From contig CM069160.1 in the NCBI GenBank assembly GCA_035221665.1, forward strand, positions 30,442,001 to 30,506,000: a DNA stretch of 64,000 nt. Direction: 5' to 3'. Positions within the stretch are counted from its first letter, which is position 1, and the number at the start of each line of letters is the position of its first letter. Below, in pieces: positions 3,375 through 57,996 of this stretch. This stretch comes from Okamejei kenojei. Taxonomy: Eukaryota. The translations under genes and the position numbers were made by a program. The notes under the pieces were generated by a model, which was not told the DNA's origin, did not search any database, and saw only the letters and a program-made list of their open reading frames with translations.

Positions 3375-3407
3375 CGTACTGTTGGACTGACTTGTCTTTT
3401 TCTAGTT
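3375..3407 (-). CDS. Gene 1 cytoplasmic micro-exon (ELEKDKSVQQY)
   Basis: 33 nt, ttttccAG acceptor and G|GTAAGT donor, phase 1-1. Resembles the short coiled-coil exons of butyrophilins. Confidence 0.7.
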
Positions 3408-9694: not shown

Positions 9695-9814
9695 CTTTCA
9701 TGTGATTACGTCTTCTTACAGTCCAAAAAATAGCTAAACCAAGCGCGATCAACAGAAGACAAAGAGCCAGGCATAAGAACACCAGCCAGCCTGAAACAAC
9801 TGGGAAGAAGATAT
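9695..9814 (-). CDS. Gene 1 transmembrane exon (DIFFPVVSGWLVFLCLALCLLLIALGLAIFWTVRRRNHMK)
   Basis: 120 nt, ttgcAG acceptor and AAG|GTACCG donor, phase 1-1. A hydrophobic helix is followed by an RRR stop-transfer, and DxFFP is typical of butyrophilin TM exons. Confidence 0.9.
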
Positions 9815-11741: not shown

Positions 11742-12026
11742 CTGCGATCTCAATAATGGCTTCCTGTTCTTTCGCCAATACTCGATTCCATAAAATACAG
11801 CTGAACTTGTTTGTCGAACCTTGTGATACAGTTACTTTGCTCTGGGCATTAATAAGTTGTTTCGAATCCTGCTGATAATTTATATCAGATTTTAAAGTTA
11901 AATTCTCTTTCTCGCCACGAATCCATTGTATCGATGGTGCGGGATACCAGCCAGTAGACTCACAGACCAGCTGAATTCCACTTTTCTCATATCCTCTGAT
12001 GTAGATCCAGTGGTCATGACCCAAAC
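11742..12026 (-). CDS. Gene 1 IgC exon (GLGHDHWIYIRGYEKSGIQLVCESTGWYPAPSIQW..FSCILWN)
   Basis: 285 nt, phase 1-1. G-I-x-L-x-C-x-S-x-GWYP is a butyrophilin IgC motif. Confidence 0.93.
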
Positions 12027-17792: not shown

Positions 17793-17850
17793 CATTTGCT
17801 GGAAACAGAATTCCAGGAAGTAAAAGCAGAGGGAGATAATATTCTTTCAT
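17793..17850 (-). CDS. Butyrophilin-like gene 1, signal peptide exon (MKEYYLPLLLLPGILFPAN)
   Basis: 58 coding nt, phase-1 donor G|GTAAGC, and acceptor tacacAG 11 nt upstream of the ATG. Confidence 0.85.
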
Positions 17851-20543: not shown

Positions 20544-22354
20544 GTCGGAATTCTCTGCCTCACATGGCAGTGGAGGCCGGTCCTCTCTATGCTTTCAAGG
20601 GAGAGTTAGAAAGACCTCTTAAAAATAGCGGAGTCAGGGGATATGGGGAGAAGGCAGGAACGGGGTACTGATTGGGGATGATCAGCCATGATCACATTGA
20701 ATGGCGGTGCTGGCTTGAAGGGCTGAATGGCCTGCTCCTGCACCTATTGTCTATTGTCACCTATCCATGTTCAGAGATGCTGCCTGATCCGCTGAGATAC
20801 ACCAGCACTTTGTGTCCTTTTGTTTATTTAACCAGCATCTGCAGTTCCTTGTTTCTACAAGCAATGGGGGTAACTCAGCTGATCTGAAGAAGGGTCTTGA
20901 TCCGAAAACATCAACTGTCCATTCCCTCCACAGATGCTACCTGACCTATTTTATAGGTGTATAAAATCATGAGAGGAATTGATCGGGTAAATGCACAGAG
21001 TCTCTTGCCCAGGCTAGGTAAATCGAAGACCTGAGGACATAGGTTTAAGGTGAACATAGAAACATAGAAGGTAGACAAAAATGCTGGAGAAACTCAGCGG
21101 GTGAGGCAGCATCTATGGAGCGAAGGAAATAGGCAACGTTTTGGGTCGAGACCCTTCTTTCGACCAGAAACGTTGCCTATTTCCTTCGCTCCATAGATGC
21201 TGCCTCACCCGCTGATCATCCACAATCAGTAACCCGTGCCTGCCTTCTCCCCATATCCCTTGATTCCAATAGCCCCTGGAGCTATATCTAACTCCCTTTT
21301 AAATTCATCCAGTGAATCGGCCTCTACTGCCTACCGCGACAGAAAAGTTCCACAAATTCACAACTCTCTGGGAGAAAATGTTTTTTCGCATCTCAGTTTT
21401 AAATGGCCTCCCCTTTATTCTTAAGAAAGAACTGCAGATGCTGGAAAATCGAAGGTAGACATAAATGCTGGAGAAACTCAGCGGGTGAGGCAGCATCTAT
21501 GGAGAGGTGACATTTCGGGTCAGTCTGAAGAATGGCCTCGACCCGAAACGTCGCCTATTTCCTTCGCTCCATAGATGCTGCCTCACCCGCTGAGTTTCTC
21601 CAGCATTTTTGTCTACTTTCCTCTTTATTCTTAGTCTGTGGCCCCTAGTTCTGGACTCCCCCAACATTGGGAACGTTTTTCTTCCTGCATCTAGCGTGTC
21701 CAGTTGAAGGGGAAAGATTTAATAGGATTCTGAGGGGTAACTTTTCCACACAAAGGGTGGTGGGTGGGTGCATGGAACAAGCTGCCAGAGGAGGTAGTTG
21801 AGGCTGGGACTATTGCATCGTTTAAGAAACAGTTGGACAGGTACATGGATAGGGCAGGTTTGGAGGGACATGGGCCAAACCTGTCCAAGGCAGGTCACCA
21901 GGTGGGACTAGTGTAGCTGGGACAAGTTGGCCGGTGTGGGCAAGTTAGACCGAGGAGTCTGTTTCCACGCGGTGTCACTCTACGACCCTCCGAGTTGCCC
22001 TTCGGCACTTTTCCTGGTTACTAGCGCCTGCAGTTCCTAGTGCCGCTCCCAGGTCCACCACTGCTCCGCCCAGAATTTCAGAACATGCACCAGGAAGTTT
22101 TACCCCCTTATGTCAAATCGACGGCCTCGCAGCGAAAATCTGCTTGTCGGAGATTGGAAACGGGTGGGTGCCTGGGAATAAATAAAGAAATACGTCCCAC
22201 CACTTCTCCCGATCAGTCAGTCAGTCACCGACTGCCGCCTTAACTCCCTGAACCGCACCAACCCGGACTTCGGACCCGAACGGCGCCCCGGGGGTTTCCC
22301 TTTTAACGACTCTCGCTGGCAAACCGAGGAGCGCTTTCAGCCCCTGAAACTCAC

Positions 22355-22520
22355 CTCACTCCCCCGATCAATGCCCTGGCGCGGCCGCTAAACCCACCCC
22401 CCCCGGGCCCGAGACCCGGTTGACTCAGGGATCCCCCGCCCAAAAAAAAGCCGTTTCACCAAAAAGTTAAGTATAAATGGGTGGGACGGGCAAAGGGAAA
22501 CTAATCATGGGATTGGCAAG
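22355..22520 (-). promoter_or_regulatory. Putative non-coding first exon/promoter of gene 1 in a CpG-rich island (about 22030-22500)
   Basis: Consensus donor AG|GTGAGT at 22355/22354, ISRE-like CAAAGGGAAACT (22491-22502) and ATTGG (22512). The signal-peptide exon has an acceptor that needs an upstream exon. Confidence 0.45.
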
Positions 22521-22997
22521 CAATGATCATATGATCTTTGTCGGCAAGAGAACAGGGCTATTAGATTGCAACGGTCAGCACCAAGTGCTTGAATGGGCCT
22601 GTCCCACTTAGGCGACTGCCAGGGACTAATTTTAATGGAATTCACCCACAACCTACGACAGCAGAAATTGTCGCCACTGTCGCCGAGAAATTTTCAACAT
22701 GTTGAAAACTTTGTGGCAGGCGCCTGTTGACACAAAAAAAATCGCCTAAGTGGGACAGGCCCATAACTCAGTGGGTCAGGCAGCATCTCTGGAGACAAGG
22801 GATGGGTGAGGTTTCGGGTCGGGATACTTCTCCAGACGGGTCCCAAGTTAACGCGAAAGGTGAGTCCGAAGAAGGGTCCCGACCCGAAATGTCGCCCACC
22901 CATCCCTTTTTTCCAGAGATGCTGCCTGGCCCGCGCAGTCACTCCAGAGCTTTGTGTCTGACTTTAGTACAAAAAACAGCACCTGCAGTTCCTTGCT

Positions 22998-24435: not shown

Positions 24436-25862
24436 CTGCAGAAATGTAACCTTCTCATATATCCATATATGAATAACCCTTCCTCTATCAGAATAACCTG
24501 TCACTCTTCTGTCAATCTTGCGATGCTGTCCATCTTAAGGATCTGTCCATCTTAAGAAGCAAGAGGCTGAACTAACCTTATAGATAACGTATTGCTGAAT
24601 CGTCAAATATTGGGATATATATCTACATGTAGTGAAATCATTGTCTGTGTGTGTGGGGGATTTCCCTATAGTCTGTTATTAGCGTAGTGTAAAGGGATTT
24701 GTACTACACCCGCCTGGCAGGTTAAAGATTACTGCTAATTACTGATTTTATTTGCCTGTCCTTTTAAGCATATTTTGGGCCACGACAAGACCACATGGGG
24801 TTTCTCAGGATGCTCCGGTTTCCTCTCACACATCCCAAAGACGTGCAGGTTTTGTACGTTGACTGGTCCTCTGTAAATTGCCCCTGGCGTGTAGGTGGAG
24901 GATGAGTAATGGCCCTGTCCCACGATGCGAGTTCATTCAAGAGCTCTCCCGAGTTAAAAAAAAAAAATCAAACTCCTGCTAGCATGGAGAATGAACGTAG
25001 CGGGTACTTCGGAGCTCGGGGACGTCTCTCAGCGCTAATGGCAGGTACTCGGGAAGGCTCGCTAACGGCGGGTAGGCTCGGGAAGACTCGTGAAGATTTT
25101 TCGACATGTTGAAAATGTCCACGAGAATCCCGAGTACCGACGAGCGGCCATTACCGTATATCTCCGAGTTCGAATCAGGGCAAACTCGGGAGAACTCTTC
25201 GAATGAACTCGTACAGTGGGACAGGGCTTCAAGTGTGATAACAGAATTAGTGTGAATGGGTTGCTGATGGTTTGGCATGGATTCAGTGGGCCGATGGGCC
25301 TGTTTCCATGCTGTGCCTCCAAATTACTTCAAAATATTCTGTATGTCAAAGACGCAAAAAAGAATGCAGATCAAAAAATATTCAGGATACCAAGCGGTAG
25401 AGTTGCTGCCTTACACGAATGCAGCGCCGGAGGCCCGGGTTCCATCCCAACTCTCGGTGAGAATAGACAATAGACAATTTTCTGATGCTGTCTGTACGGA
25501 GTTTGCACGTTCTCACCGCGACCTGCGTGGGTTTTCTCCGAGATCTTTGGTTTCCTCCCACACTCTAAAGAGGTACAGGTTTGTAGGTTAATTGGCTTGG
25601 TAATCAGTAAATGCCCATTAATCTCCTATGTGGGACCTTATCAAAGGCTTTCTCAAAGTCCAGGTACACTGGCTCTCCACTTGTCTGTTTTCCTAGTTAC
25701 ATCCTCAAAAAATTCCAGAAGATAAGTCAAGCATGAATTTCCCTACGTAAATCGAAGCTGACTCGGGCCGACACTGTTACTGCTATCCAGTTATACTCGG
25801 GAGGCAGTTGCTCTGTTGCTGCGACTCTGTGTCAACCGAAGGTGGAAAGATCTCTGACCTAC

Positions 25863-26147
25863 CTGATATCTGAAGGTGAGCCTTTCGTGTTTGCCTCAGT
25901 AAGTGACTTTGCATGAAACAGGAATACCTGTTCACGGCATCGCCCCTGACAAAGAGGTAGCTGTGGACAGTGATCAGCCCGCTGGAGTCCTCGGTGAACC
26001 AAGTGTCAGACCGCGCAGTCACATCCCGTCTACTCCCATCCAGCCACCATAACTCCGGCTCGGGAAACCACCCATCGGACGTGCACACAACAACCACTCC
26101 TTGCTCGGTGCGTTCTTCCAAGCGGATCAAGGGCTGGAGTCCAAAAC
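25863..26147 (-). CDS. Gene 2 IgC domain exon, copy B
   Basis: 285 nt, phase 1-1, open. VVVVCTSDGWFPEPELWW..NRYSCFMQ is a butyrophilin-type IgC. Confidence 0.92.
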
Positions 26148-26717
26148 CTACTCAGAGTCACAGGGAGATGAGGTTCAGAGACACGTAGAGACATGGATTC
26201 ATCGGGTCATAGAGGCAGAGAAACAGAGACAGAGGCAGGGCGACCACGGTGGCGCAGTGGTAGAGTTGCTGCCTTACAGCGAATGCAATGGCGGAGACCC
26301 GGGTTCGATCCTGACTATGGGTGCTGTCTGTATGGAGTTTGTACGTACTCCCCATGACTAGCGTGGGTTTTCTCTGAGATCTTCCATTTCCTCCCACACT
26401 CCAAAGAGGTTAGGTGGCTTGGTAAATGTTAAAAAAATGTCCCTAGTGGGTGTAGGATGGAGTTAGTGTGCTGGGATCGCTGGTCGGCATGGACCCGGTG
26501 GGCCGAAGGGCCTGTTTCCGCGCTGTGTCTCTAAAACTAAACTAAAGACTGAGGCAGAGAGACAAAAAGACACAAAGATACCGACACAGAAACACAGCAA
26601 CAGAGACACAAAATCTCCTGAGGATTAACAAATTCATAATTTATAGGAGCAGAATTAAGCACGTTTATGAGAATGATCTCCGGAATGATTGGGTTAACAT
26701 ACAATGAGCGTTTGATG

Positions 26718-27281
26718 TAGGGTTGACAACTTTCTCACTCCCAAATAAGGGACAAAAGGTCAAAATACGGGACAAATTCCTGACGGCAATTCGTTGACCG
26801 ACTCGGCCATGGCTGAGTGAATGATGAGTTGGCCCTGTGCTGGACTGCAGGGGAGGTTTGGACTGATGGGGTAGGCGGGGGGGGGGGAGAAAGGAAAAAG
26901 GAGGAGGAGGAGCCCGAGGGCTGAGGGAGAGGTTTGGAAGTGCACAAGACAGCAAGGATCAACAGAATTGAGAGAATTCAATGTTCTCTCCAAGAGGATG
27001 CAGACTCCCCAAGCGGAATATGAGGTGCTGTTCCTCCAATTTGCGGTGCTGCTCACTCTGGCCGTGGAGGAGGCCCAGGACAGAGAGGTCGGATGCTGAA
27101 TGGGAGGGGGAGTTGAAGTGCTGAGCCACCGGGAGGTCGGATTGGTTATTGCAGACCGAGCGGAGGTGTTCGGCGAAACGATAGCAGTCACGTACAGGAC
27201 AAGGGCGGTCCCGTACGGGACAAACCAATTTAGCCCAATATATGGGATGTCCCGACTAAACCGGGACAGTTGGCGACCCTA
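26718..27281. mobile_element. Non-autonomous hAT (Blackjack-like) element containing a Penelope fragment; relatives at about 33160-33596 and 55805-57510
   Basis: Termini TAGGGTTGACAAC and GTTGGCGACCCTA, subterminal GGGAC repeats and an internal GIY-YIG piece. Confidence 0.65.
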
Positions 27282-27317
27282 TGGGGCCCAAAAAGGTTTT
27301 CCACAGGTGGGACTTAC

Positions 27318-27659
27318 TTTCAACATCCAGATACAGTGCCATCTGCAGGTGGGAGGTTTTGGTCCTGGTGGAGCAGGTGTAGATGCCAATGTCTGAGAAT
27401 TTAATCCACTTCAGTTTAAGTGAGGCATTTCCGCGGTGAAACTCTTCCTGAAAGAGTTCTGTCCTCCCTCGATAAGCCTCGTCCTGCGCGTCCAGTCGAT
27501 CCTGCCCGCCGGTGTATAAATGTACCAGCGACCCTGATGTAAACCATCTCACCTCCAATTCCTTCAGGGCTGTAACTGGCCTCAACCTGCACTCCAGGAG
27601 GATATCACCACCCACTACGCTGGTGACAAAACTTCTTGACGAAATAACATCGGGATTCT
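27318..27659 (-). CDS. Gene 2 IgV domain exon, copy B
   Basis: 342 nt, phase 1-1, open. VVGGDILLEC..EVRWF..YRGRTELF..GNASLKL..DIGIYTC, a close paralog of copy A. Confidence 0.92.
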
Positions 27660-29069
27660 CTGGAGAAAGGCAACATATTAAACAAAGAGTGAAGGAAAGA
27701 TCTGGCTTACACCGAAGATAGACACAAAACACTGTAGTGACCAAACGGGTCTGGGGGAAAAGGAGCCTGAAGAAGGCTCTCGACCCGAAACGTCAATCAT
27801 TCCTATCCTCCAGAGATGCTGCCTGTCCTGCTGAGTTACTCCACCATTTGTGCCTATCCTCCGTATTAAGCGGAGGACTCAGCAGCGGGCACGGTGGCCA
27901 GCCTTAGAGTTTCTGACTCACAGCACCAGAGACCCGGGTTCGATCCTGACTATGGGTGCTGCCTATAGGGGCCTAGCCCTTGATTCCTCAAAGAATCCTT
28001 GATTCATCAAGGAATCTCCTAAGGTTCCCTTAAGGAATCAAGGGATATGGGGGGAAAAGCAGGAAGGGGGTATTGATTTTAGATGATCAGCCATGATCAT
28101 ATTACTCCTGCACCTATTATCTATGCTTCTGTGCACAACTCCTCCCCCTTCTGTCGTGGGGTAGACTGAGACTGACTCCTCTCTCCCCCCCCTCCCCCCC
28201 CTCCCCCCCTCTCCTCCCCCTCTCCCCCCCACACCTCACCAATCTTTGCACATCCCCAATCCTTTCCACTCGTCACTTTATTTCCCGATGTTGGGGGAGT
28301 CCAGAACCAGGGGCCAGTTTCAGAATAAGGGGTAAGCCATTTAGAACGGAGACGAGGAAACATTTTTTCACACAGAGAGTTTGTGAGTCTGTGGAATTCT
28401 CTGCCTCAGAGGTGGTGGAGGCCGGTTCTCTGGATACTTTCAAGAGAGAGCTAGATAGGGCTCTTAGAGATAGCAGAGTCAGGGGATATGGGGAGAAGGC
28501 AGGTACGGGGTACTGATTGGGGATGATCAGCCATGATCACATTGAATGGCGGTGTTTGCTCGAAGGGCCGAATGGCCACTCCTGCACCTATTGTCTATTT
28601 TCATGTTTAATATATTTTGTGCTTATAGAACTGTTGACAGATCAATTCCCCTCCTGAGGTAAATAAAGTTCTATCGTATCGTATCTGAGATTAGGATTTA
28701 AATTAAGGTAATTATACTCGAGAGGCAGTTTTACTGAGTTATACTGAGGAGCAGCACCTCATATTTCACTTGAGCAGTTTGCACCCCAGCAGTATGAACA
28801 TTGATTTCTCCAATTTCATGTAGTCCCTGCTTTCTCCTCCCCTTCCCAGCTCTCAGTCAGCCCACTGTCTCCGCCTTTTCCTTTCTTCTTCCCGCCCCCC
28901 ACCCTCACATCAGTCTGAAGAAGGGTCTTGACCCGAAACGCCGCCTATTTCCTTTCCCTCCATAGATGCTGCCTCACCCGCTGAGTTTCTCCAGCATTTT
29001 TGTCTACCCTCGAGAGGCAGTTGCTCTGTGTTGCGATTCTGTGTCAACCGAAGGTGGAATGATTTCCAG

Positions 29070-30607
29070 CAGGCACGTGCCGTCAGGGTAGGCAAGGTAG
29101 ACACTGCCTACCCTGATTAAGATTATGAAATGGCAATTATTAAATATAAATAGTAAAGGCATGGGAGAATTATGCCTATCTAAGAGATGGATCTCTTAGG
29201 TAGGTATAATTTTCCGTGCCTTTTGTCCGCAGCGCTTGTAACACGGGAAGGACTGTGCAGCCCACGGGCCGTCAGCGCTGCCTGAGACGTCAGTTTCAAG
29301 GGGAGCTGAAGGCAGCAGAAATTCTGCCTTTGCAGCACTGCGCATGCCCAGCGCGAGTTTCTTGGCGGGATTTTCGAATATGGATTGCCATTATTTTAAT
29401 AGTTTCTCAGGAAACAAAAAGTGAAGAATGGACTTAATGTACCAATAACGTGGTAAGTGCATTTCTTGATGCTTAATTTTTATAAATGCTGTATTTCCCG
29501 GGGTGGGGGGGGGGGGGGGGGGGGAGAGCTCCGTTCACAGTGTTTGGGGAGTCTGGCGTTGTGAAGGAGAGGTTCGGGGTCAGTAACCTTGCCACGCTCC
29601 GGTCTGAATGCAGGTAGATGGGACTAGGTGAGAGTAAGTGTGTGACATGGAGTAAAAGGACGGAGATGGCCTGTTTCCGTGCTGTAATTGCTATATGGTT
29701 TTATTGTGGCCGGGGAGTGAATTAGCTTGGGTGGCTGCCGCAGCGCTCCGGGCACGGACAGCACAACTGGCCGCCACTTCTGAGGAAGGAAGCAGCTCGG
29801 GTGACTGACTTTGAGCGGCCGCCGGGACCCTGCCATTTCAGCCACTTCAGCCCCGTCTGCTAGTCCCCGTCTCCTCTGGCTGTGCTTTCCGTCTGAACAT
29901 CTCTCACCTGCCGCTCGCCGGCCGGCATCCCGCAAATCTTTAAATTCCGATAGCGGGTTCACGGGACCAGTTGAGGTTACTCAGCTGTGGGAATTTAAGG
30001 ATTTGCGGGATGTGGTTGACATGAGCGAAGCCGGCGAGCGGCAGGTGAGAGATGTTCAGACGAAGAGCACTGCCAGAGGTGAGCCGGCTGGCAGAAGGCG
30101 CTGAAGTGGCAGCCGGTTCTGTTGTCGGGTCCCGGCGGCCGCTCGCACCCGAGCTGCTTCTATCCCCGGAAGTGGCGGGCAGTTCTGCTGTCCGTGCCCG
30201 GAGCGCTGCGGCAGCGGTGAGTGAGTCTGACATGATCTCTGACCCCCTCCTTTTCAACACTCCTGCCCTCCCCGCATCTTTAACCCCTGGCACAGACTCT
30301 CCACGCGCTGTGAAGAACTCTCCCTCCAAATGGACCCTTGAATTAGTATTGTCATTCAATAAGATGACAACTGATTCAACGTCCCGGTGTGCTCCCGTTT
30401 TTCCCACCATCTCTCCACCTGCCTTCATCCTCCGTCCCCCACCCATTCAGTGATTAGAAAATGAAGGAGATTGAGAAGCCTTGGTAAAATTGAATTGTTA
30501 CTTATTTTTTATTTTTTACGAAGAGAACAATCTGCGCATGCGCGGTTTAAGATTTTTAAAAAGCCGACTGACTGCCTACCCGAGTAATTACTCACGGCAC
30601 GTGCCTG
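29070..30607. mobile_element. Non-autonomous hAT transposon, 1538 bp, 14-bp TIR, 8-bp TSD
   Basis: TIR CAGGCACGTGCCGT / ACGGCACGTGCCTG. TSD ATTTCCAG at 29062-29069 and 30608-30615. The paralogous intron at about 25850 shows the empty site. Confidence 0.92.
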
Positions 30608-30627
30608 ATTTCCAGTCACTGACGTAC

Positions 30628-30909
30628 CTGATATCTGAAGATGGGCCTCTTTTGTCCACCATGAGCGACTTCCCACGAAACAGGAATACCTGTTCACGGA
30701 ATCGCTCCTGACATCGATGTGGACTGTGGACAGTGATCAGCCCGCTGAAGTCCTCGATGAACCGAGTTTCAGACCGCACGATCACATCCTGTCCACTCCA
30801 TCCTGCCACCATATCCCCGTCTGGGGAAACCATCCATCGGACGTGCACACCTTGTGCAATTCTTGCTCGGTGCTTTTTTCCAGGCGGATCCGGGGCTGGA
30901 GTTCAAAAC
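30628..30909 (-). pseudogene. Gene 2 IgC exon, copy A, disrupted by -1/+1 frameshifts with an intervening stop
   Basis: Paralogous to 25863-26147 (GFELQPRIRLE..VCTSDGWFP..VNRYSCF..AHLQIS) with intact splice sites. There is a -1 near 30798, a TGA at 30784-30782 and a +1 near 30721. Confidence 0.75.
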
Positions 30910-30929
30910 CTACTCAGAGTGACAGGGAC

Positions 30930-31508
30930 ATCACACGCTGCCATACTGGTGAGTAAGGCAAGGCAGCGCCTTTACCACCTCAGGCAGCTGAGGAAATTCA
31001 GAGTCTCTCTTAGGATCCTTCAGTCCTTCTACTCTGGGGCTGTAGAAAGCATCTTGTCCGGCAACATCACAATCTGGTTTGGGAACTGCTCTGCCCAGGA
31101 CAGGAAGGCTCTGCAGAGAGTAGTGCGTTCGGCCGAACACACTATGGGAACTACACTCACACCCCTGCAGGACCTATACACCAGGAGGTGCAGATCCACA
31201 GCCAGCAACATTATGGGGGACCCCTACCCCCCCCAGCAACGGACTGTTCCAGCTGCTACGGTCAGGCAAACACCTCCGCTGTCACGCTGTGAAAACAGAG
31301 AGGATGAGACGGAGTTTCTTCCCACAGGCCATTAGGACTGTAAACTCTGATCTCACCAAGGAGTAAATACTATTGCGTCTTATTTTTTTAATGTCAATAC
31401 TCATTCTGTTCTGTTCTGTAGTTTTTACACAATCCCGCAGGCATTGCCACTTTCCCTGTACATCTTGTATGTGAATGTGACAAATAAAGTGGACTTGGCT
31501 TGACTTGA
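30930..31508 (+). mobile_element. Rex1/Babar-type LINE 3' fragment with (GACTT)n tail
   Basis: KARQRLYHLRQLRKF..FYSGAVESILS..WFGN, followed by AATAAA and a short repeat tail. Confidence 0.85.
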
Positions 31509-31769
31509 GGATTAATAAATTCATAACTTATAGGAGCAGAATTAAGCCACCTGGCCCATCAAGTCTACTCCGCCATTCAATCACGGCTGATCTATCGCTC
31601 CCTCTCAACTCCATTCTCCTGCCTTCTCCGCATAACGCCTGGCACTCTTACTAATCAAGAATCTGGCAATCTCTGCCTTATAAATATCCAATGACTTGAC
31701 CTTCGACTATTATTGTTATTATTGCTCTATTGTATTTTATTTGCGTGTACATATGTGTGCGTGAGTGTG

Positions 31770-31781
31770 TCCATATATATA

Positions 31782-31813
<32 letters not shown>

Positions 31814-31922
31814 GATCTATATATATGTGTATTTGTGAGTATGTGTATATATACACACACTGAACTGTCATATTGTTATTTGTATTCTATTGTTCACAGT
31901 GGACATTGTTCACATACTCTGT

Positions 31923-31972
<50 letters not shown>

Positions 31973-32082
31973 CTATATATATGTGTATTTGTGAGTATGT
32001 GTATATATACACACACTGAACTGTCATATTGTTATTTGTATTCTATTGTTCACAGTGGACATTGTTCACATACTCTGTTGTG
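31770..32082. repeat. (TA)n microsatellites within a ~157-bp tandem duplication
   Basis: Two copies of TATATA..TGATCTATA..CATACTCTGTTG. Confidence 0.85.
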
Positions 32083-32147
32083 CTGCAGCAAGTGAGAATT
32101 TAATTGTTCTGTGAAATATGACAAAAAAACACTCTTGACTCTTGAAA

Positions 32148-32872
32148 CTTGGGAAAAGGGGAAATACAATAGGATCTGGGGGTCCTTGTTCACCAGTAAG
32201 CATTCAGGTACAGCAGGCAGTGAAGAAAACGAATGGCATGTTGGCCTTCTTAACAATAGGAGTTGAGTAGCAGAGCAAAGAGGTCCTTCTGCCGTTGTAC
32301 TGGGCCCTAATGAGACCACACCTGAAGTATTGTGTGCAGTTTTGGTCCCCTAATTTGAGGTAGGACAGTATTGCTATTGATGGAGTGCAGCGTAGGTTTA
32401 CATGGTTAATTCCTGGGATGGCCGGGCTGTCATGTGCTGAGAGAATGTGCTGGGCTTGTATACTCTGGCGTTTAGAAGGATGAGAGGGGATCTTATTGAA
32501 ACATATAAGATTATTCAGGGTTTGGACATACTAGAGGTAGGAGACATGTTTCCGATGTTGGGGGAGTCCAGAACCAGGGGCCACACAGTTTAAGAAGGAC
32601 TAAGCCATTTAGAATAAAGATGAGGAAACACTTTTTCACACAAAGAGTTTTGAGTCTGTGGAATTCTCTACCTCAGAGGGGGGTGGAGGCTGGTTCTCTG
32701 GATGCTTTCAAGAGAGAGCTAGATAGATTTTTATAGATAGCAGAGTTAAGGGATATGGGAAGAAGGCAAGAACGGGGTACTGATTGTGGATGATCAGCTA
32801 TGATCACAATGGTGGTGCTGGCTCAAAGGGCCGAATGGCCTACTCAGTGCATCTATTGTCTATTGTCTATTG
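32148..32872 (+). mobile_element. Degenerate CR1 3' fragment
   Basis: Diverged CR1 RT C-terminus with a (CTATTGT)n tail. Confidence 0.85.
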
Positions 32873-33630
32873 ACTCTCTCTTGACCTCCACAGCCATCTG
32901 TAGCAATCAATTCCACAGATTCACCACCCTCTGACAAAATAAATTCCTCCTCTTCTACTTTCTGAAGGTACGTCCTTTCATTCTCACGCTGTGCATCTGG
33001 CTCTAGACTCGCCCGCTAGCGTAAGTTCGGCAAGTTTCAATGAGGTACCCCCTCATCCTTCTGAAACTCCAGCAAGTGGAAGCCCAGTGCCATCAAACGC
33101 TCATCGTACGTTAACACAATTATTCCGGGGATCATTCTCGTAAATCCCCCCTGGACTCCCGTAAGGGACTGCCCTTGTCCCGTATTTGACTGCTACTACT
33201 CGGGTCGAAGGGACTGTCGGGTTGGAGCGCCGCATCCGGTCCCGCCTCACCTCTCACGACGTAGTGCAGCCCATGGAGTGCAGCAGCAGCAGCAGCAGCG
33301 CCTCGCCCGTGGCGGTCCGGCACGGCCAACTGTCCGACCTTCGCTTATAGCCGACATCCCCACCGCCCCTCCTTCTCATCAGTTCATGAGTTGGATGGGG
33401 TACCGGACTTTGCTTGCGGCCTGGGCCAAAACCTATCAGCTGGCCCGCCGGCTGGGCTTTGTGTGCAGTCCAACACCCGGGCCAACTCATCATTCACCCA
33501 GCCACGGCCGAGTCGGTCAACAAATTGCTGTCGGGAATTTGTCCCGTATTTTGAACTTTCGTCCCTTATTTGGGAGTGAGAAAGTTGGCAACCCTACGTC
33601 AAACGCTCATCGTACATTAACCCAATCATT

Positions 33631-34150
33631 GAAACATAGAAACATAGAAAATAGGTGCAGGAGGAGACCATTCGGCCCTTCGAGCCAGCACCGCCATTCA
33701 TTGTGATCATGGCTGATCGTCCCCTACCAATAACCCGTGCCTGCCTTCTCCCCATATCCCTTGATTCCACTAGCCCCTAGAGTTCTATCTAACTCTCTCT
33801 TAAATCCATCCAGTGATTTGGCCTCCGCTGCCCTCTGTGGCAGGGAATTCCATAAATTCACAACTCTCTGGGTGAAAAAGTTTTTTCTCACCTCAGTCTT
33901 AAATGACCTCCCCTTTATTCTCAGACTGTGGCCCCTGGTTCTGGACTCGCTCAACATTGGGAAATTTTTTCCCGCACCTAGTTTGTCCAGTCCTTTTATA
34001 TTTTTTTCAGTTTCCATAAGATCCCCCCTCACCCTTCTAAACTCCAGTGAATGCAAGCCTGGTCTTTTCAATCTGTCCTCATATGACAGTCCCGCCATCC
34101 CAGGGATCAATCTCGTGAACCTACGCTGCACTGTCCTTCCTCAAATTAGG
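33631..34150 (-). mobile_element. CR1 3' fragment
   Basis: ORF QRRFTRLIPG..GYGEKAGTGY and an (ATAGAAAC)n tail. Confidence 0.9.
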
Positions 34151-34247
34151 AGATCATTCTCGTTAACCCCCCCCGGACCCTGTTCAACACCAGCACACCT
34201 TTCCTCAGGTATGAGGCCCAAAATAGTTTCCCACAGGTGGGACTCAC

Positions 34248-34589
34248 CTTCAACGGCCAGATACAGCCCCATCTGCAGATAGGTGGTGTTGGTCCTGGTG
34301 GAACAGGTGTACATGCCATTGTCTGAGGCTTTAATCCACTTCAGTTTAAGTGAGGCATTTCCGAGGTGAAACTCTTTGGGAAAGAGTTCCGTCCTCCCTC
34401 GATAAGCCTTGTTCTGCACATCCAGTCGATCCTGACCGCCAGAGTACAAATGTACCAGCTTTGTTGACTTAAACCATCGCACCTCCAATTCCTTCAGGGC
34501 TGTAACTGGTCTCAACCAGCACCCCAAGATGACATCGCCACCCACTACGCCGTAGAAGGGACTTTCAGGCGAAATATAATGGGCTTCCC
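34248..34589 (-). CDS. Gene 2 IgV domain exon, copy A
   Basis: 342 nt, phase 1-1. VVGGDVILGC..EVRWFK..VHLY..YRGRTELF..GNASLKL..DNGMYTC is a butyrophilin/B7 V-set pattern. Confidence 0.92.
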
Positions 34590-36141
34590 CTGGTGAAAGG
34601 CAACATATTAAACAAAGTGTGTAGGAAGGAACTGGCTTACACCGAAGATAGACACAAAACACAGTATTAACAGGCAGCGTCTCAGGAGAACAAGGAGTCA
34701 GAAGAAACATTATCTTATTGAAACATATAAGATTATTACTTGGACACAGGTTTGGACACGTTAGAGGCAGGAAACACGTTCCCGATGTTGAGGGAGTCCG
34801 GACCCAAGGGCCACACAGTTTGAGAATAAGGGGTAAGCCATTTAGAACGGAGATGAGGAACCACTTTTTCACACAGAGAGTTGTGAGTCTGTGGAATTCT
34901 CTGCCTCAGAGGGCGGTGGAGGCCGGTGGAGGCCGGTGGAGGCCGGTTCTCTGGATACTTTCAAAAGAGAGCTAGATAGGGCTCTTAAAGATAGTGGAGT
35001 TAAGAGATATGGAGAGAAGGCAGGAACAGGTACTGATTGGGGATGATCAGCCATGATCACATTATGGCGGTGCTGGCTCGAAGGGCCGAATGGTCTACTC
35101 ATGCACATACAGTCTATTGACCTGAAATGTCACACATTCCTTCTCTCCAGAGATGCTGCCTGTCCCGCTGAGTTACTCCAGCATTTTGTGTCTATCTTCC
35201 GTATTAACCAGAGTACTTAGGTGCAGGCACAATGGCGCAGCGGTAGATTTGTTGCCGCACAGTGCCAAAAACCCAGAGTTCGATCCTGACTACGGGTGCT
35301 GCCTGTACGGAGTTTGTAACTCCTCCTCGCAACCGTGTTGTTTTTCTCCGGGAGCTCCGGATTCCTCCCACACGGCAAAGATGTACAGGTTTGTAGGTCA
35401 GCTGGCTTGGTGACATTGTAAATTGTCCCTGGTGTGTATAGGATAGTGTGAGAGTGTGGGCCAAAGGGCAATTTTGAATTCCGTTCAAAATTAAACCAAA
35501 CTAATTCAATTTTTAGAGTTCTCTAGAGATGCTGCCTGACATGTTAAGTTACCCCAGCACTCAGTGTCCTTTTTTATATTAACCAGCATCTGCAGTTCCT
35601 CTTTTCTGCATTTTGGGCGGCATGGTGGCACAGTGGGGCTGTTGTTGCCTTGGAGCGCCAGAGATCTGGGTTCGATCCTAACTGCGGGTGGTGTCGATAC
35701 CGAGTTTGCGCCTGCACCTCTTTAGAATGTGTCAGGAAACCTGGAGCACCTGCAGAAAACCCACACAGTATTGGGGAGAACGTACAAACTCCGCCTCCGT
35801 GGTCAGGATCGAACCCAGGTCTCTGGCGCTGTGAGGCGGCAAACACTACTACGCGACTGCACTAACTCCGTGCTGCTGGGGTGGCCACGTTGGCGTAGCG
35901 GTACAGTTGCTGCTTTGCAGCGCCGGAGACCCGGGTTCGATCCCGACTATGGGCGCTGTCTGTACCGAGTTCTCCGTGCAAACTGCATGGGTTTTCTCCG
36001 AGATCTTCGGCTTGTGCAGGTTTGTAGATTACTGTCTCTAGTGGGTGTAGGATAGTGTTAATGTGCGGGGATTTGTGCGGACTCAGCGCACAGTTTCTCC
36101 AAACTAAACTAAACAGAACTATTAACAATTTATTTGCTTAC

Positions 36142-36202
36142 CCATCATAACTGCTTGAACAAGTACAAACACAAGACAACAACAGCAGCATCTTCCCTTC
36201 AT
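36142..36202 (-). CDS. Butyrophilin/B7-like gene 2, signal peptide exon (MKGRCCCCCLVFVLVQAVMM-G)
   Basis: ATG, basic N-region and hydrophobic core, with a phase-1 donor G|GTAAGC. The upstream acceptor ctctttgcAG at 36233 gives a short 5' UTR portion. Confidence 0.8.
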
Positions 36203-36634
36203 CACTGGAATGAAATAATTGAACTGTTTCACCTGCAAAGAGAATATATATTTATATTTTAGAGCATCTTTTAACGACAGCACAATCGAGCAGCTGGTAA
36301 ATCCACTACCTCACATCACCAGGGACAAGCTTTGATCCTGATGTCAGGTGCTGTCTGTGTGTGTAGAGTTTCTCCCTGGGACCACGTGGATTTCCACCAG
36401 GTGCTCCGGTTTCCTCCCACATCCCCAAAACATACGGATTTGTCGGTTAAGTGGCCCTCGGTAAATTGTCCCTAGTGATTTAGTTCTCAGGGCTAAAGGA
36501 ATCAAGGGATATAGACAATAGTCAATAGGTGCAGGAGGAGGCCACTCGGTCCATTGAGCCGGCACCGTCATTCAATGTGATCATGGCTGATCATCCCTGT
36601 TCCTGCCTTCGACCCATAATCCCCGACTCCGCTG

Positions 36635-38826
36635 GAAAGTAACTTTGAAGGTATGAGACGTGAATTGGCCAAGATAGACTGGCAATTGATTCTTACAGGG
36701 TTGACAGTGGATGTGCAATGGAAGGCATGGATGAACTACAACAATTGTTCATCCCAGTTTGGCAAAAGAACAAATCAGGGAAGGTAGTGCATTCTGGATA
36801 ACAAGGGAAATGAGGGATAGTATCAAAACAAAAGACGAAGCATACAAATTAGCCAGAAAAAGCAACCTACCAGAGGACTGGGAGACATTCAGAGTCCAGC
36901 AGAGGAGGACAATGGGCTTAATTAGGAAAGGGAAAATAGATTATGAAAGAAAACTGGCAGGGAACATAAAAACTGACTGCAAAAGTTTTTATAGATATGT
37001 GAAGAGAAAAAGATTAGTTGAAACAAATGTAGGTCCCTTGCAGTCAGAAACAGGTGAGTTGATCATGGGAAACAAGGACATTGCAGACCAATTGAATAAC
37101 TACTTTGGTTCTGTCTTCACTAAGGAAGACATAAATAATCTGCCGGAAATAGCAGGGGACCGGGGGTCAAATGAGATGGAGGAACTGAGTGAAATCCAGG
37201 TTAGCCGGGAAGTGGTGTTGGGTAAATTGAATGGATTAAAGGCCGATAAATCCCCAGGGCCAGATAGTCTGCATCCCAGAGTACTCAAGGAAGTAGCCAC
37301 AGATATAGTGGATGCATCAGTGATCATTTTTCAAAACTCTTTAGATTCTGGAGTAGTTGCTGAGGATTGGAGGGTAGCTAATGTAACCCCACTTTTAAAA
37401 AAAGGAGGGAGAGAGAAAATGGGGAATTACAGACAAGTTAGTCTAACATCGGTAGTGGGGGAAATGCTAGAGTCAGTTATTAACGATGAAATAGCAGCAC
37501 ATTTGGAAAGTGGTGAAATAATTGGACAAAGTCAGCATGGATTTACGAAAGGTAAATCATGTCTGACGAATCTTATAGAATTTTTCGAGGATGTAACTAG
37601 TAGAGTGGATAAGGGAGAACCAGTGGATGTGTTATATCTATTTCAGAAGGCTTTTGACAAGGTCCCACATAAGAGATTAGTATGCAAACTTAAAGCACAT
37701 GGTATTGGGGGTTCAGTATTGATGTGGATAGAGAACTGGCTGGCAGACAGGAAGCAAAGTGTAGGAGTGAACGGGTCCTTTTCAGAATGGCAGGCAGTGA
37801 CTAATGGGGTACCGCAAGGCTCAGTGCTGGTACCCCAGCTATTTACAATATATATTAATGATTTGGACGAGGGAATTGAATGCAACATCTCCAGGTTTGC
37901 AGGTGACATGATGCTGGGGGGCAGTGTTAGGTGTGAGGAGGATGCTAGGAGGCTGCAAGGTGACTTGGATAGGCTGGGCGAGTGGGCAAATGCATGGCAG
38001 ATGCAGTATAATGTGGATAAATATGAGGTTATCCACTTCGGTGGCAAAACCAGGAAGGTAGACTGTTATCTGAATGGTGGCCAATTAGGAAAAGGGGAGA
38101 TGTAACGAGACCTGGGTGTTATGGTACACCAGTCATTGAAAGTAGGCATGCAGGTGCAGCAGGCCGTGAAGAAAGCGAATGGTATGTTGGCATTCATAGC
38201 AAAAGGTTTTAAGTACAGGAGCAGGGAGGTTCTACTGCAGTTGTACAGGGTTTTGGTGAGACCACACGTGGAGTATTGCGTACAGTTTTGGTCTCCAAAT
38301 CTGAGGAAATACATTCTTGCCATTGAGGGGGTACAGAGAAGGTTCACCAGACTGATTCCTGGGATGTCAGGACTTTCATATGAGGAAAGACTGGATAGAC
38401 TCGGCTTGTAGCCACTAGACTTTAGAAGATTGAGGGGGGATCTTATAGAAACTTACAAAATTCTTAAGGAGTTGGACAGGCTAGATGCAGGAAGATTGTT
38501 CCCGATGTTGGGGAACTCCAGAACAAGGGCTCACAGTTTAAGGATAAGGGGGAAGTCTTTTAGGACCGAGATGAGAAAAACATTTTTCACACAGAGAGTG
38601 GTGAGTCTCTGGAATTCTCTGACAGAGAAGGTAGTTGAGGCCAGTTCATTGGCTATATTGAAGAGGGAGTTAGATGTGGCCCTTGTGGCTAAAGGGATCA
38701 GGGGGTATGGAGCAAAGACAGGTACAGGATACGGAGTTGAATGATCAGCCATGATCATATTGAATGGCGGTGCAGTCTCGAAGGGCCGAATGGCCTACTC
38801 CTGCACGTATTTTCTATGTTTCTATT
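36635..38826 (+). mobile_element. CR1 LINE ORF2 (RT) 2.2-kb fragment
   Basis: KSPGPD.LHPRVLKE, NYRx[26 protein letters not shown]. Confidence 0.95.
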
Positions 38827-40772
38827 CTTCTATCTTTAAGAGCCCGATCTAGCTCTCTCTTGAAAGTATCCAGAGAACCTGCCTCCACCGCCCTCTGAGG
38901 CAAAGAATTCCACTGACTCACAACTCTCTGTGCGAAAAAGTGTTTCCTCATCTCCGTTCTAAATGTCTTACCCCTTATTCTTAAACTGTGGCCCCTGGTT
39001 CGGGACTCCCCCAACAATCGGGAACATGTGTCCTGCCTCTAGCGTGTCCAAACCCTTAAAGTTTAAGAGCTGCAGATGCTGGAAAAATTGAAAGAAGACA
39101 AAAATGCTGGAGAAACTCAGCGGGTGAGGCAGCATCTATGGAGCGAAGGAACAGGTGACGTTTCGGGTCGAGACCCTTCTTCAGACCCTTAACAATCTTA
39201 TATGTTTCAATAAGATCCCCTCCCAACCTTCTAAATATGGGGAAAAAGCAGCCATGCAGCCAGCAGCCAAAATCATATTGAACGGCAGTGCTGGCCCCAG
39301 GGGCTGAATGGCCTACTCCTATTTTCTAAGTTTCTATTTTACTCCAGCACTCTGTTTTTTTTTGTGTGTTAAACAGCATCTGCAGTTCCTTGTTTTGACA
39401 AAACAATATTCGTAGAGATACGCCTCAGGCTCCAACCACACAGACAGTGTGTCTGCTACAAGTCTCTGCTCGCCTGATTTAATTCATCCCACCCCAGTCA
39501 AAACCTTCCTCCTGCTCTCTCGCCCTTGGGCTTTTTCTAGATTTCTCTTAAATGCACGGAGATTGTCCAGCACATCCAAGTCCTGTTCTCCTGCCAGCCT
39601 CTGGATAAAGTCATTGGATCGATCAGTGAATCTGGCCAGTGGAGTCCAATTCACTGGATGTTTTTTAGAGAAAATTAGATTTAGCTCTCAGCGCCTAAAA
39701 GAATCAAGGGATATGGGGAGAAGGCAGGAATGGGCTACCGATTTTGGATGATCAGCCATGATCATATTGAATGGCGGTGCTGGCTCGAAGGGCCGAATGG
39801 CCTACTCCTATTTTCTATGTTTCTATGTATAGGTGGAGGATAAATAAGTGGGATACCATAATACTGGTGTGAATGGGTGATCAGTGGTCAGCGTGGACTC
39901 GATGGGCCGAAGGGCCTGTTTCCACACTGTATCTCTCAACTCTCTCCAAACACTGAGTTAATTGTAGGAAGGAACTGCAGATGCTGGTTTACACCGAAGA
40001 TAGACACAAAATGCTGGAGTAACACAGCGGGACAGGCAGCGTCCCTGGAGAGAAGGAATGGGTGAGATTTCAGGTCGAGGCATTTCTTCAGACTGATGGA
40101 TCTTGAAAATGCAGAGTCTGAAGAAGTGTCTCGACTAGAAACGACCCCCACTCTTTCTCTCCAAAGATGCTGCCTGCCTGTCCCGCCGAGAGTTACTCCA
40201 GCAGTTTGTGCCGGTCTGTGGGAATGAGAAGGGAATTTAATATTTTCTTTGCATGGTCGGACTCGCAGCTACATTCCCGGCCGAGAGCGCTGTGAACGAA
40301 CATGTCTTTTCCACACAGATGGTGTTGGGTGTGTGGAACAAGCTGCCGGAGGAGGTAGTTGAGGCTGGGACTATCCCAACGTTGAAATACAGGTAGATGG
40401 ATAGGACATGTTTGGAGGGATGTGGACCAAGCGCAGGCAGGTGGGACTAGTGTAGATGGGGCACGTTGGGCCGAAGGGCCTGTTTACACGCTGTATGACG
40501 ATCCCAGTGAACGGACCAACTCTCCCGGCCGCCGCCTAGACCTTCCCTGACCCGCACCGGCCCCCACGCTCTCCCGAGCGGGCAAACTGGCCACTCCGGC
40601 CCCGGGAAACCAACCCTGGTCTCGGTCCCAGCCTCATCCCGGGGGGGGGGGGGGGGGGGGGGGACAGCGGGGTGTCCCCTTCCACCTTCTAGCGAAGTCT
40701 CCGCTAAGTTGCAAAGAAGGTGGAGCGATCGCTTTGTCCCAGCGGCTGAGAGATGTCCAGGGTCTCACTCAC

Positions 40773-40910
40773 CTCTTGAGTCGTCCCCACCTCCCGGGCC
40801 CGCTCCTCCGTGCCCGAGTTAAAAAATCGGAACAGCAGCCACTCACTCCTGCAAAGACAAGCCCTTTTCCAAATTGGACGAGGAATTGGACGATTTTAGT
40901 TTCGCTTATT
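40773..40910 (-). promoter_or_regulatory. Putative non-coding first exon/promoter of gene 2 (proximal copy)
   Basis: GC/CpG-rich unique tract with a consensus donor AG|GTGAGT at 40773/40772, two ATTGG motifs (40873, 40885) and an IRF-like AGTTTCGCTT (40898-40907). Confidence 0.45.
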
Positions 40911-43635
40911 GTTCGTTGAGTCATGGAGTGATAACTGTGTGGCAACAGGCCCTTCGTCCCAACTTGCCCACACCAGCCAACAATGTTCCAGCAACATTAG
41001 TCCCACATGCCTGCGCTTGGTCCATATCCTCCAAATGTCCTGTTAAACTGTTTCTTAAACGATTGGATAGTCCCAGCCTCAACTACCTCCTCCGGCAACT
41101 TGTTCCATACACCCACCACCCTCTGTGTGAAAAAGTTACCCCTCGGATTCCTATTCTATCGTTTCCCCTTCACCTTGAACCTATGCCCTCTGGTCCTCGA
41201 TTCCCCTACTCTGGGTAAGAGACTCGAAGGAAAACACACTTAGTTCAGTCTGAAGAAGGGTCTCGACACGAAACGTCACCTATTCCTTCGCTCCATAGAT
41301 GCTGCCTCACCTGCTGAGTTTCTCCAGCATTTTTGTCTACCTTCGATTTTTCCAGCATCGGCAGTTCTTTCTTAAAGATTGGGTAAAAGACTATGCATCT
41401 AGCAGATCTATTCCTCTCATGATTTTGTACACCTCTGTGAGATCTCCCCTCATACTCCTACGCTCCATGGAATAGAGACCCAGCCTACTCAACCTCACCC
41501 TATAGCTGGCACCCTAGAGTCCAAACAAGTCTTATTGTTATGAATACCAAGCTGCAATGAAAAGCTAAATAGTTTGTGTGCTGTCCATTCAAAGGAAAGA
41601 GTAGGAAGGAACTACAGATGCTGGTTTAATTGGGAACATATTTCCTGCATCTAGCTTGTCCAGTCCTTTTATAATTGCATATGTTTCTATAAGATCACCC
41701 CTCATCCTTCTAAACTCTACTGCATACAAGCCTTGTCTTTTCAATCTTTCCTCGTAGAACAGTCCCGCCATCCCAGGGATCAATCTCGTGATCCTACGTT
41801 GCACTGCCTCAATTTGATGTGGATAGAGAACTGGCTGGCAGACAGGAAGCAAAGTGTAGGAGTAAACGGGTCCTTTTCAGAATGGCAGGCAGTGACTAAT
41901 GGGGTACCGCAAGGCTCAGTGCTGGGACCCCAGCTATTTACAATATATATTAATGATTTGGACGAGGGAATTGAATGCAACATCTCCAGGTTTGCAGGTG
42001 ACATGATGCTGGGGGGCAGTGTTAGGTGTGAGGAGGATGCTAGGAGGCTGCAAGGTGACTTGGATAGGCTGGGCGAGTGGGCAAATGCATGGCAGGTGCA
42101 GTATAATGTGGATAAATGTGAGGTTATCCACTTTGGTGGCAAAAACAGGAAAGTAGACTGTTATCTGAATGGTGGCCAATTAGGAAAAGGGGAGATGTAA
42201 CGAGACCTGGGTGTTATGGTACACCAGTCATTGAAAGTAGGCATGCAGGTGCAGCAGTCCGTGAAGAAAGCAAATGGTATGTTGGCATTCATAGCAAAAG
42301 GTTTTAAGTATAGGAGCAGGGAGGTTCTACTGCAGTTGTACAGGGTTTTGGTGAGACCACACCCGGAGTATTGCGTACAGTTTTGGTCTCCTAATCTGAG
42401 GAAAGACATTCTTGCCATTGAGGGGGTACAGAGAAGGTTCACCAGACTGATTCCTGGGATGTCAGGACTTTCATATGAGGAAAGACTGGATAGACTCGGC
42501 TTGTAGCCACTAGACTTTAGAAGATTGAGGGGGGATCTTATAGAAACTTACAAAGTTCTTAAGGGGTTGGACAGGCTAGATGCAGGAAGATTGTTCCCGA
42601 TGTTGGGGAACTCCAGAACAAGGGGTCACAGTTTAAGGATAAGGGGGAAGTCTTTTAGGACCGAGATGAGAAAAACCTTTTTCACACAGAGAGTGGTGAG
42701 TCTCTGGAATTCTCTGACATAGAAGGTAGTTGAGGCCAGTTCATTGGCTATTTTTAAGAGGGAGTTAGATGTGGCCCTTGTGGCTAAAGGGATCAGGGGG
42801 TATGGAGCAAAGACAGGTACAGGATACGGAGTTGAACGATCAGCCATGATCATATTGAATGGCGGTGCAGGCTCGAAGGGCCGAATGGCTTACGCCTGCA
42901 CGTATTTTCTATGTTTCTATTCTTCTATCTTTAAGAGCCCGATCTAGCTCTCTCTTGAAAGTATCCAGAGAACCTGCCTCCACCGCCCTCTGAGGCAAAG
43001 AATTCCATTGACTCACAACTCTCTGTGCGAAAAAGTGTTTCCTCATCTCCGTTCTAAATGTCTTACCCCTTATTCTTAAACTGTGGCCCCTGGTTAGGGA
43101 CTCCCCCAACAATCAGGAACATGTTTCCTGCCTCTAGCGAGTCCAAACCCTTAAAGTTTAAGAGCTGCAGATGCTGGAAAAATTGAAAGAAGACAAAAAT
43201 GCTGGAGAAACTCAGCGGGTGAGGCAGCATCTATTGAGCGAAGGAACAGGTGACGTTTCGGGTCGAGACCCTTCTTCAGACCCTTAACAATCTTATATGT
43301 TTCAATAAGATCCCCTCCCAACCTTCTAAATATGGGGAAAAACAGCCATGCAGCCAGCAGCCAAAATCATATTGAATGGCGGTGCTGGCCCCAGGGGCTG
43401 AATGGCCTACTCCTATTTTCTATGTTTCTATTTTACTCCAGCAATCTGTGTTTTTTTTGTGTGTTAAACAGCATCTGCAGTTCCTTGTTTTGACAAAACA
43501 ATATTCGTAGAGATACGCCTCAGACTCCTACGGGGTGTCCCCTTCCACCTTCCAGCGAGTCTCCGCTAAGTTGCAAAGAAGGTGGAGCGATCGCTTTGTC
43601 CCAGCGGCTGAGAGATGTCCAGGGGTCTCACTCAC

Positions 43636-43772
43636 CTGTTGAGTCGTCCCCACCTCCCCGGGCCCGCTCCTCCGTGCCCGAGTTAAAAATCGGAACAGCA
43701 GCCACTCACTCCTGCAAAGACAAACCCTTTTCCAAATTGGACGAGGAATTGGACGATTTTAGTTTCGCTTAT
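43636..43772 (-). promoter_or_regulatory. Duplicated copy of the putative first exon/promoter of gene 2
   Basis: Near-identical to 40773-40910, with the same donor at 43636/43635. Confidence 0.4.
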
Positions 43773-53965: not shown

Positions 53966-54039
53966 CTGGAAAAGGGGAGAGAGAGTGAGATAGAGTCAGG
54001 GAGAGGGTGAGACAGAGACGGACAGCGGGGAGGGAGAGA

Positions 54040-55362: not shown

Positions 55363-55375
55363 GTGTAATTCCTAC

Positions 55376-57859: not shown

Positions 57860-57996
57860 NNNNNNNNNNNNNNNNNNNNNNNNNNNNNNNNNNNNNNNNN
57901 NNNNNNNNNNNNNNNNNNNNNNNNNNNNNNNNNNNNNNNNNNNNNNNNNNNNNNNNNNNNNNNNNNNNNNNNNNNNNNNNNNNNNNNNNNNNNNNN
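57860..57996. other. Assembly gap (137 N)
   Basis: Run of N. Confidence 1.

Follow-up and report, generated by a model that had tools for sequence, protein, structure and literature searches.

A tandemly duplicated IgV-IgC module beside a butyrophilin gene of Okamejei kenojei and its possible place in a five-Ig isoform

What protein is made from a run of immunoglobulin (Ig) exons that holds two IgV-IgC pairs behind a single signal-peptide exon? We addressed this question for a 64,000-nucleotide stretch of the genome of the skate Okamejei kenojei (contig CM069160.1, positions 30,442,001 to 30,506,000), here called the window and numbered from its first letter. An earlier note on this DNA had described the exons as a four-Ig (IgV-IgC-IgV-IgC) architecture that arose independently, by recent intragenic duplication. 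The explanation to which we incline, with modest confidence, is that they form the 5′ module of a long hybrid isoform, a five-Ig butyrophilin of the layout V-V-C-V-C-transmembrane (TM)-B30.2. The whole would be a compound butyrophilin locus with two signal exons, at which skipping of the first IgC exon (C1) and splicing of the second (C2) to the IgV exon of the neighboring gene (V3) would take place in this species.

The duplicated module and a path into its neighbor

One signal exon followed by two IgV-IgC pairs, as claimed in the earlier note, is what the window contains: all five exons lie on the minus strand with AG/GT borders and phase 1-1, and the two IgVs are indeed equal in length. In the list, P0002 and P0277 are protein models from Amblyraja radiata ("butyrophilin-like protein 10", XP_032903361.1) and Leucoraja erinacea ("butyrophilin-like protein 2 isoform X1", XP_055521749.1), respectively.

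36142..36232, minus strand: signal-peptide exon SP1; ATG at 36202, acceptor at 36232, phase-1 donor; matches the N-termini of P0002 and P0277
34248..34589, minus strand: IgV1 exon (V1), 342 nt, open; Pfam V-set, E 5e-11
30628..30909, minus strand: IgC1 exon (C1), 282 nt; splice sites intact, broken as assembled
27318..27659, minus strand: IgV2 exon (V2), 342 nt, open; Pfam V-set, E 3e-10
25863..26147, minus strand: IgC2 exon (C2), 285 nt, open, last exon of the module; Pfam C2-set_3 (BTN3A2-like IgC), E 1.5e-18

Since SP1 has an acceptor at 36232, an untranslated exon must sit upstream of it. The absence of a second signal exon between C1 and V2, also noted earlier, held up in two scans of that interval: an SP1 query scored no better than shuffled SP1, and a scan for an ATG, a hydrophobic stretch and a phase-1 donor gave 0 candidates while recovering both control signal exons. 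A second signal exon between the two pairs was rejected on these grounds.

A second butyrophilin gene begins 8 kb downstream of C2, outside the region delimited in the earlier note.

17793..17850, minus strand: signal-peptide exon SP2, where the short isoform would begin; agrees with P0279 at 17 of 19 residues
15072..15422, minus strand: IgV3 exon (V3) of the BTN3-like gene; Pfam V-set; 96% to L. erinacea and A. radiata
11742..12026, minus strand: IgC3 exon (C3); Pfam C2-set_3, E 4.5e-20; 90% to L. erinacea
9695..9814, minus strand: transmembrane exon, located by tblastn and hydrophobicity scans
3375..3407, minus strand: first short cytoplasmic exon, matched to the L. erinacea model

To judge from P0277 and P0278, both of which contain a SPRY domain, further exons and the B30.2 domain would lie beyond the left end of the window. 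A hydrophobic stretch near 16.7 kb was dropped as a candidate TM exon, lying downstream of SP2.

The evidence for a joined product comes from L. erinacea. XP_055521749.1 (801 aa) maps onto SP1, V1, V2, C2, V3, C3, the TM exon and the first cytoplasmic exon, in the same order (74-96% by domain), and omits C1. Its layout is signal-V-V-C-V-C-TM-B30.2, ending in SPRY, and it is the sole V-V-C-V-C protein among the 286 fetched. Its last 460 residues are common with the 479-residue isoform X2 (XP_055521750.1), a short form that shares the downstream gene; the model and its name are automatic RefSeq annotation from another species. In the window the corresponding path, from SP1 to the first cytoplasmic exon, is open over 606 codons, and the V3 acceptor is in phase with both SP2 and C2. 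The predicted structure of P0277 comprises five beta-sandwich segments, a TM helix and B30.2; it was not used as evidence, since a shallow alignment left V1, V2 and C2 at low confidence (blocks of about 25-78).

No TM or B30.2 exon was found in the 8 kb between C2 and SP2, by tblastn with 130 relatives or by a hydrophobicity scan, and the same scans do recover the TM exon of the downstream gene. Unlike four-Ig proteins of the BTNL2 or 4Ig B7-H3 type, the module has no TM exon directly after its second IgC; TM and B30.2 share a chain in the downstream gene, as they do in the L. erinacea model that joins the two. We propose that the upstream, BTN1A1-like paralog itself lacks TM and B30.2 exons, and that its long transcript would run through SP1-V1-V2-C2 and be spliced across SP2, over a 10.4-kb intron, into V3-C3-TM-B30.2. 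The C2-V3 junction is taken from the L. erinacea model, and its frame is open in the window. A short transcript would begin at SP2. The long product would use the anchor and B30.2 of the conserved downstream gene and add to them a distal, fast-changing V-V-C head.

The same lack of an anchor would suit a secreted V-V-C (or V-C) decoy, made from a separate anchorless gene whose join to its neighbor is minor read-through. The module has its own signal exon, reading past the C2 donor adds 26 residues before a stop, the A. radiata annotation presents a separate gene, and purifying selection on V1, V2 and C2 would be equally compatible with such a product. However, within the 1.36 kb behind C2 the nearest poly(A) hexamer is a single site about 1.1 kb away, and the L. 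erinacea model joins the C2 donor to the V3 acceptor, which agree in phase. We consider the decoy unlikely, if the best placed of the alternatives.

The state of the first IgC exon

The path SP1-V1-C1-V2-C2, as assembled, ends at a stop at codon 177. Compared with C2, C1 lacks one nucleotide near 30799 and has an extra one near 30723, and between these two indels the shifted frame runs onto TGA stops at 30784 and 30739. The stop lies 154 nt ahead of the exon end and next junction, the usual setting for nonsense-mediated decay, and leaving C1 out preserves the frame. We suggest that C1 may be a dead, skipped exon, and that transcripts including it should be degraded. The open V-C-V-C frame that characterizes four-Ig proteins is absent from the assembled sequence, and the four-Ig architecture of the earlier note is not supported on this point, on the missing anchor and on the L. 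erinacea model, which bypasses C1 and continues into the downstream gene.

The A. radiata model P0002 has the same signal-V1-C1-V2 order, and its C1 shares a one-codon shortening with C1 of the window. Unlike the window, it has an open C1, a V2 short by 14 N-terminal residues and no C2, and it is not joined downstream. The contig that carries it equals in length that of the downstream gene's ortholog. Its odd C-terminal tail maps to 21918-22621, a single-copy non-coding stretch represented by one contig each in sequencing runs X1 and X6, which supports synteny of this model with the locus.

An open C1 in A. radiata raises the alternative that C1 is intact in the animal, its indels being assembly errors or confined to one allele, and is used, either in a V-C-V-C protein alone or in a six-Ig V-C-V-C-V-C protein joined downstream. 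The indels compensate each other and sit in short homopolymers, the splice sites are intact, the homologous frame of C1 has no stop, and 19 of 23 core IgC residues are retained. Against this, the remaining nine exons (1877 nt) contain no frameshift, which gives a chance of about 0.02 that two random errors would both land in C1, and about 1200 nt of V1, C2 and SP1, covered by four X1 contigs, are free of gaps. The exon omitted from the L. erinacea model is exactly C1, which is also the most diverged domain between species (59/90). An intact and used C1 appears to us slightly less probable than a secreted decoy.

Origin and age of the duplication

V1, V2 and V3 are B7-type IgV domains by Pfam V-set, with matches in the PDB to MOG, BTNL3, BTN2A1, BTN1A1 and B7-H3/H4. 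C2 and C3 score above the cut-off of PF22705, as BTN-type IgC domains do, and C1 gives only a fragment below it. The predicted structure of V1 has a predicted local distance difference test score of 89.9 and template-modeling scores of about 0.85 to B7-H4, MOG, BTN2A1 and BTN3, so that V1 is still modeled as a B7/butyrophilin IgV fold. Identity with B7-H3 was rejected, since its top PDB sequence score is its two IgVs summed. In SP1, at 36202-36170, a small triplet expansion gives a run of five cysteines, where A. radiata has two and L. erinacea one.

V1 and V2 are 83% identical in DNA and share 81 of 113 residues, including all three peptides quoted in the earlier note, which partly sit on family-conserved columns. 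Their longest stretch without a mismatch, 34 nt, does not clearly exceed what 83% identity would give by chance (p 0.065). The N-terminus is where differences concentrate, as had been claimed: the first 42 nt hold 17 of the 58 nucleotide differences (permutation p 0.005), and residues 1-13 hold 10 of the 32 residue differences. Between the copies, dS is 0.24 for V and 0.14 for C, a computation for which the earlier note had called, and dN/dS is 0.74 and 1.57. Five of the 113 IgV columns are common to V1 and V2 within one species only (three here, two in L. erinacea), one of them falling where A. radiata V2 is missing; this hints at patchy gene conversion, which has probably made V1 and V2 more alike.

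The near intron flanks of V1 and V2 are 80-90% alike. The paralogous flanks reported earlier were recovered as 25796-25854 and 29009-29066 (90%), the latter proving to be part of the downstream intron of C1, shifted by 1.5 kb by an inserted element.

29009..29066, minus strand: part of the intron downstream of C1, moved away from its exon; paralogous to 25796-25854 (53 of 59 identical)
29070..30607, no strand assigned: non-coding, DNA-transposon-like insertion, 20 nt behind the C1 donor, with a 17-nt terminal inverted repeat and an 8-nt target-site duplication

This insertion, which we take to be hAT-like, contains at 29734-30215 a large palindrome, whose several pairs of arms are 29-70 nt long and about 90% complementary. 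Another insertion in the C1 downstream intron (28721-29023) is flanked by a 14-nt direct repeat.

The two pairs are not a false haplotypic duplication. Their 17% divergence is not the near-identity expected of one, X1 contig depth is even (10-11 at V1, C1, C2 and SP1, compared with 13 in two unique flanks), and both copies occur in other skates. The read-contig comparison covered 4 of 24 listed runs, and its result was swamped by repeats, which masked 25 of 37 indel rows; at C1, one X1 contig covers position 30853.

V1 has its best hit in P0002 (75%; layout signal-V-C-V), and among the best 150 of 3523 in a profile-free library search no closer relative appeared. In a tree of 54 IgV domains, the skate V1 and V2 copies fall in one clade (100/99), sister to skate BTN1A1-like genes of the usual layout signal-V-C-TM-B30.2; the module groups with annotated butyrophilins, nested in the batoid BTN1A1-like clade, and V3 belongs to another butyrophilin lineage. 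The BTNL2 V1 and V2 clades lie far from those of the skates, and the tree gives no orthology with BTNL2. Because skate V1 and V2 form their own clade, their duplication is independent of BTNL2, so that the independent origin proposed earlier stands, as an intragenic V-C tandem duplication in the skate lineage. The gene that duplicated its V-C pair would be a BTN1A1-like paralog upstream of the BTN3-like gene.

The duplication is not recent in the sense of the earlier note. V1 and V2 are both present in L. erinacea, A. radiata and a further organism, run X6, in which a V1-like contig (27 differences in 497) and a V2-like contig (33 in 465) are separate. Across the three skates, orthologous domains are 74-91% identical, compared with 72-74% for paralogs within a species; in the window the copies are 72% identical to each other and 74-83% to their orthologs. 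V1 is 74% identical to V1 of L. erinacea and A. radiata, V2 79% and 83% to the respective V2, and C2 78% to L. erinacea C2. Copy-diagnostic columns number 17 of 113, and V1 groups with V1 in a three-species tree (93/91). The window sequence branches outside A. radiata and L. erinacea, which are placed in one tribe (PMC8303890). The V-C duplication would thus predate the split of this skate's lineage from Leucoraja and Amblyraja.

Likeness of introns, which the earlier note took as a sign of youth, fails as such: orthologous copies are closer, and 4Ig B7-H3 offers a precedent. 4Ig B7-H3 (CD276) arose by a tandem V-C exon duplication with conserved introns, its copies are 96% alike and yet dated early in mammals, and in rodents C1-V2 was left behind in an intron (PMC3172298); copies may therefore be very similar without being young, and exons may be lost afterwards. 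Unlike the skate locus, whose closest relatives have a BTN-type TM and B30.2, B7-H3 belongs to another branch of the family and is not spliced into a neighbor. Mammalian BTNL2 likewise has tandem B7/butyrophilin IgV and IgC domains, but its IgVs fall in separate clades, the skate order is V-V-C-V-C, and the long skate form would carry B30.2, which BTNL2 lacks (PMC8313535). Of the parallel drawn earlier with BTNL2 and 4Ig B7-H3, the tandem V-C duplication remains; the module as assembled has neither an open V-C-V-C frame nor a TM exon after the second IgC. The V-C-V-C layout itself was found in 10 of 130 proteins, four of them mammalian BTNL2 and six teleost models (unverified gene models), and in the four teleost models included in the tree the two IgVs pair within species; convergent V-C-V-C is not rare.

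The two butyrophilin lineages may be old neighbors in elasmobranchs, as hinted by Pristis models P0015 and P0273, which lie on a contig of equal length, and by P0016, a Hemiscyllium ocellatum model whose BTN1A1-like V-C-TM precedes a C domain with 54% likeness to C3. Near-identical tandem IgV repeats (V-V-V-C or V-V-C) occur in P0001 (A. radiata), P0014 (Scyliorhinus) and P0038 (Heterodontus), and are either further duplications or fused gene models. P0005, a Heterodontus francisci model, fuses a B7-type IgV and TM to a NACHT domain.

Selection on the module and its bearing on skate butyrophilins

Between the window and L. erinacea, V1, V2 and C2 differ at 74 of 320 residues and V3 and C3 at 14 of 210 (p 3e-7), divergence in the module being about four times that in the proximal V-C. 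V1, V2 and C2 are nonetheless open in both; in simulations of neutral drift the three stayed open in at most 1.3% of runs at a divergence of 0.10, and in 11% at 0.05 without indels. Differences in V1 fall on 2 of 33 family-conserved core columns compared with 27 of 80 others (p 0.002), and in V2 on 3 of 33 compared with 21 of 80 (p 0.046). The conserved residues lost from V1 and V2 are mostly in the A strand. In residues 1-13, the least confident part of the V1 structure model, all three skates have lost the family consensus of that strand from both V1 and V2. These results point to a translated, fast-changing V-V-C head.

The least likely alternative, a decaying duplicate in which different exons fail in each skate and spliced read-through is noise, would account for the broken C1, the shortened V2 and missing C2 of the A. 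radiata model, the long stem branch and high dN/dS, the loss of A-strand consensus residues, and exon regions that differ from organism B by 5-7% compared with 5-6% in nearby non-coding DNA, but not for the fact that two species differing at 23% of residues both keep three exons open, nor for substitutions that avoid core columns.

Several observations weigh against the long hybrid isoform and the history proposed for it. P0277 is a computed model whose RNA support is not visible. No transcript junctions for this species were seen in the read contigs, in which most joints are masked by repeats. All seven Logan-derived members of the downstream gene's cluster are short-form or partial and none is long, an absence tempered by the fact that Logan contigs break at such branch points. 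In A. radiata the annotation gives a separate gene with C1 open, so the skipping of C1 and the splicing of C2 to V3 may not hold for all skates. The mutually cancelling C1 indels in homopolymers look like sequencing errors, and the high dN/dS between copies fits relaxed as well as positive selection. Regarding age, approximately unbiased tests do not reject a clade of window V1 and V2 (p 0.19 and 0.11), the three-species tree does not resolve the position of window V2, and neither is the IgC tree resolved.

Upstream of SP1, 37719-39433 and 40668-41628 are duplicated in tandem at 41814-43528 (97.8% identical) and 43531-44503 (94.9%), respectively; this duplication is young but could also be an assembly artifact. 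A 76-nt exon-like unit with AG/GT borders occurs there in two minus-strand copies (43711-43636 and 40848-40773), which may represent the untranslated first exon that the long isoform would need. A contig of run X16 lies within V1 (34299-34523; 5 differences, depth 3.8), the status of that run as RNA being a guess, so that it is no evidence of expression; run X15 is probably DNA. Farther away the window holds a G-rich tandem array (54014-55366) and a 137-base assembly gap (57860-57996).

The V-V-C-V-C architecture is already present in automatic annotation, that of L. erinacea, and four-Ig forms and hybrid butyrophilin genes are already known. Neighboring tandem paralogs are combined in one product in the human BTNL8*3 fusion (PMC3729544) and in chicken BG hybrids (PMC4046983). 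Those hybrids arose by deletion or unequal crossing-over and kept their domain count, whereas the skate DNA retains both starts and splicing would make the join, adding three domains. We found no literature on skate butyrophilins or on a V-V-C-V-C form, in a search that left most subscription papers outside it. The word "butyrophilin" is absent from the main text of the little skate genome paper (PMC10115646), and a survey of jawed-vertebrate butyrophilins includes, in the parts consulted, four cartilaginous fish and no skate, reporting only presence and MHC linkage (PMC12841164).

The butyrophilins of cartilaginous fish are barely studied, yet among living groups with gamma-delta T cells these fish branched off first. 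If the long isoform exists, the chances are about even that its added IgVs offer a second receptor-binding face, farther from the membrane, which by analogy would probably serve the gamma-delta T-cell receptor; BTN2A1 and BTNL3 bind V-gamma via the CFG face of IgV (PMC7083227). A more ambitious scenario, improbable as a whole, is that regulated splicing unites two ancient lineages of butyrophilins in one chain, equivalent to the BTN2A1/BTN3A1 and BTNL3/BTNL8 pairs by which mammals select gamma-delta T cells, with promoter choice toggling between the conserved two-Ig and the five-Ig form, the distal V-V-C under diversifying selection, and different V-C-V-C exons used by different skates.

The locus carries the caution that intron likeness does not date such duplications. 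It also illustrates how multi-Ig butyrophilins may originate, by a tandem V-C copy, exon loss and splicing into a neighbor. If the long form is merely read-through, it is an ordinary birth-and-death product of an immune gene cluster. If it is true, a conserved short form and a fast-changing long form at one locus would permit a direct test of which IgV face is exposed to pressure from receptors or pathogens.

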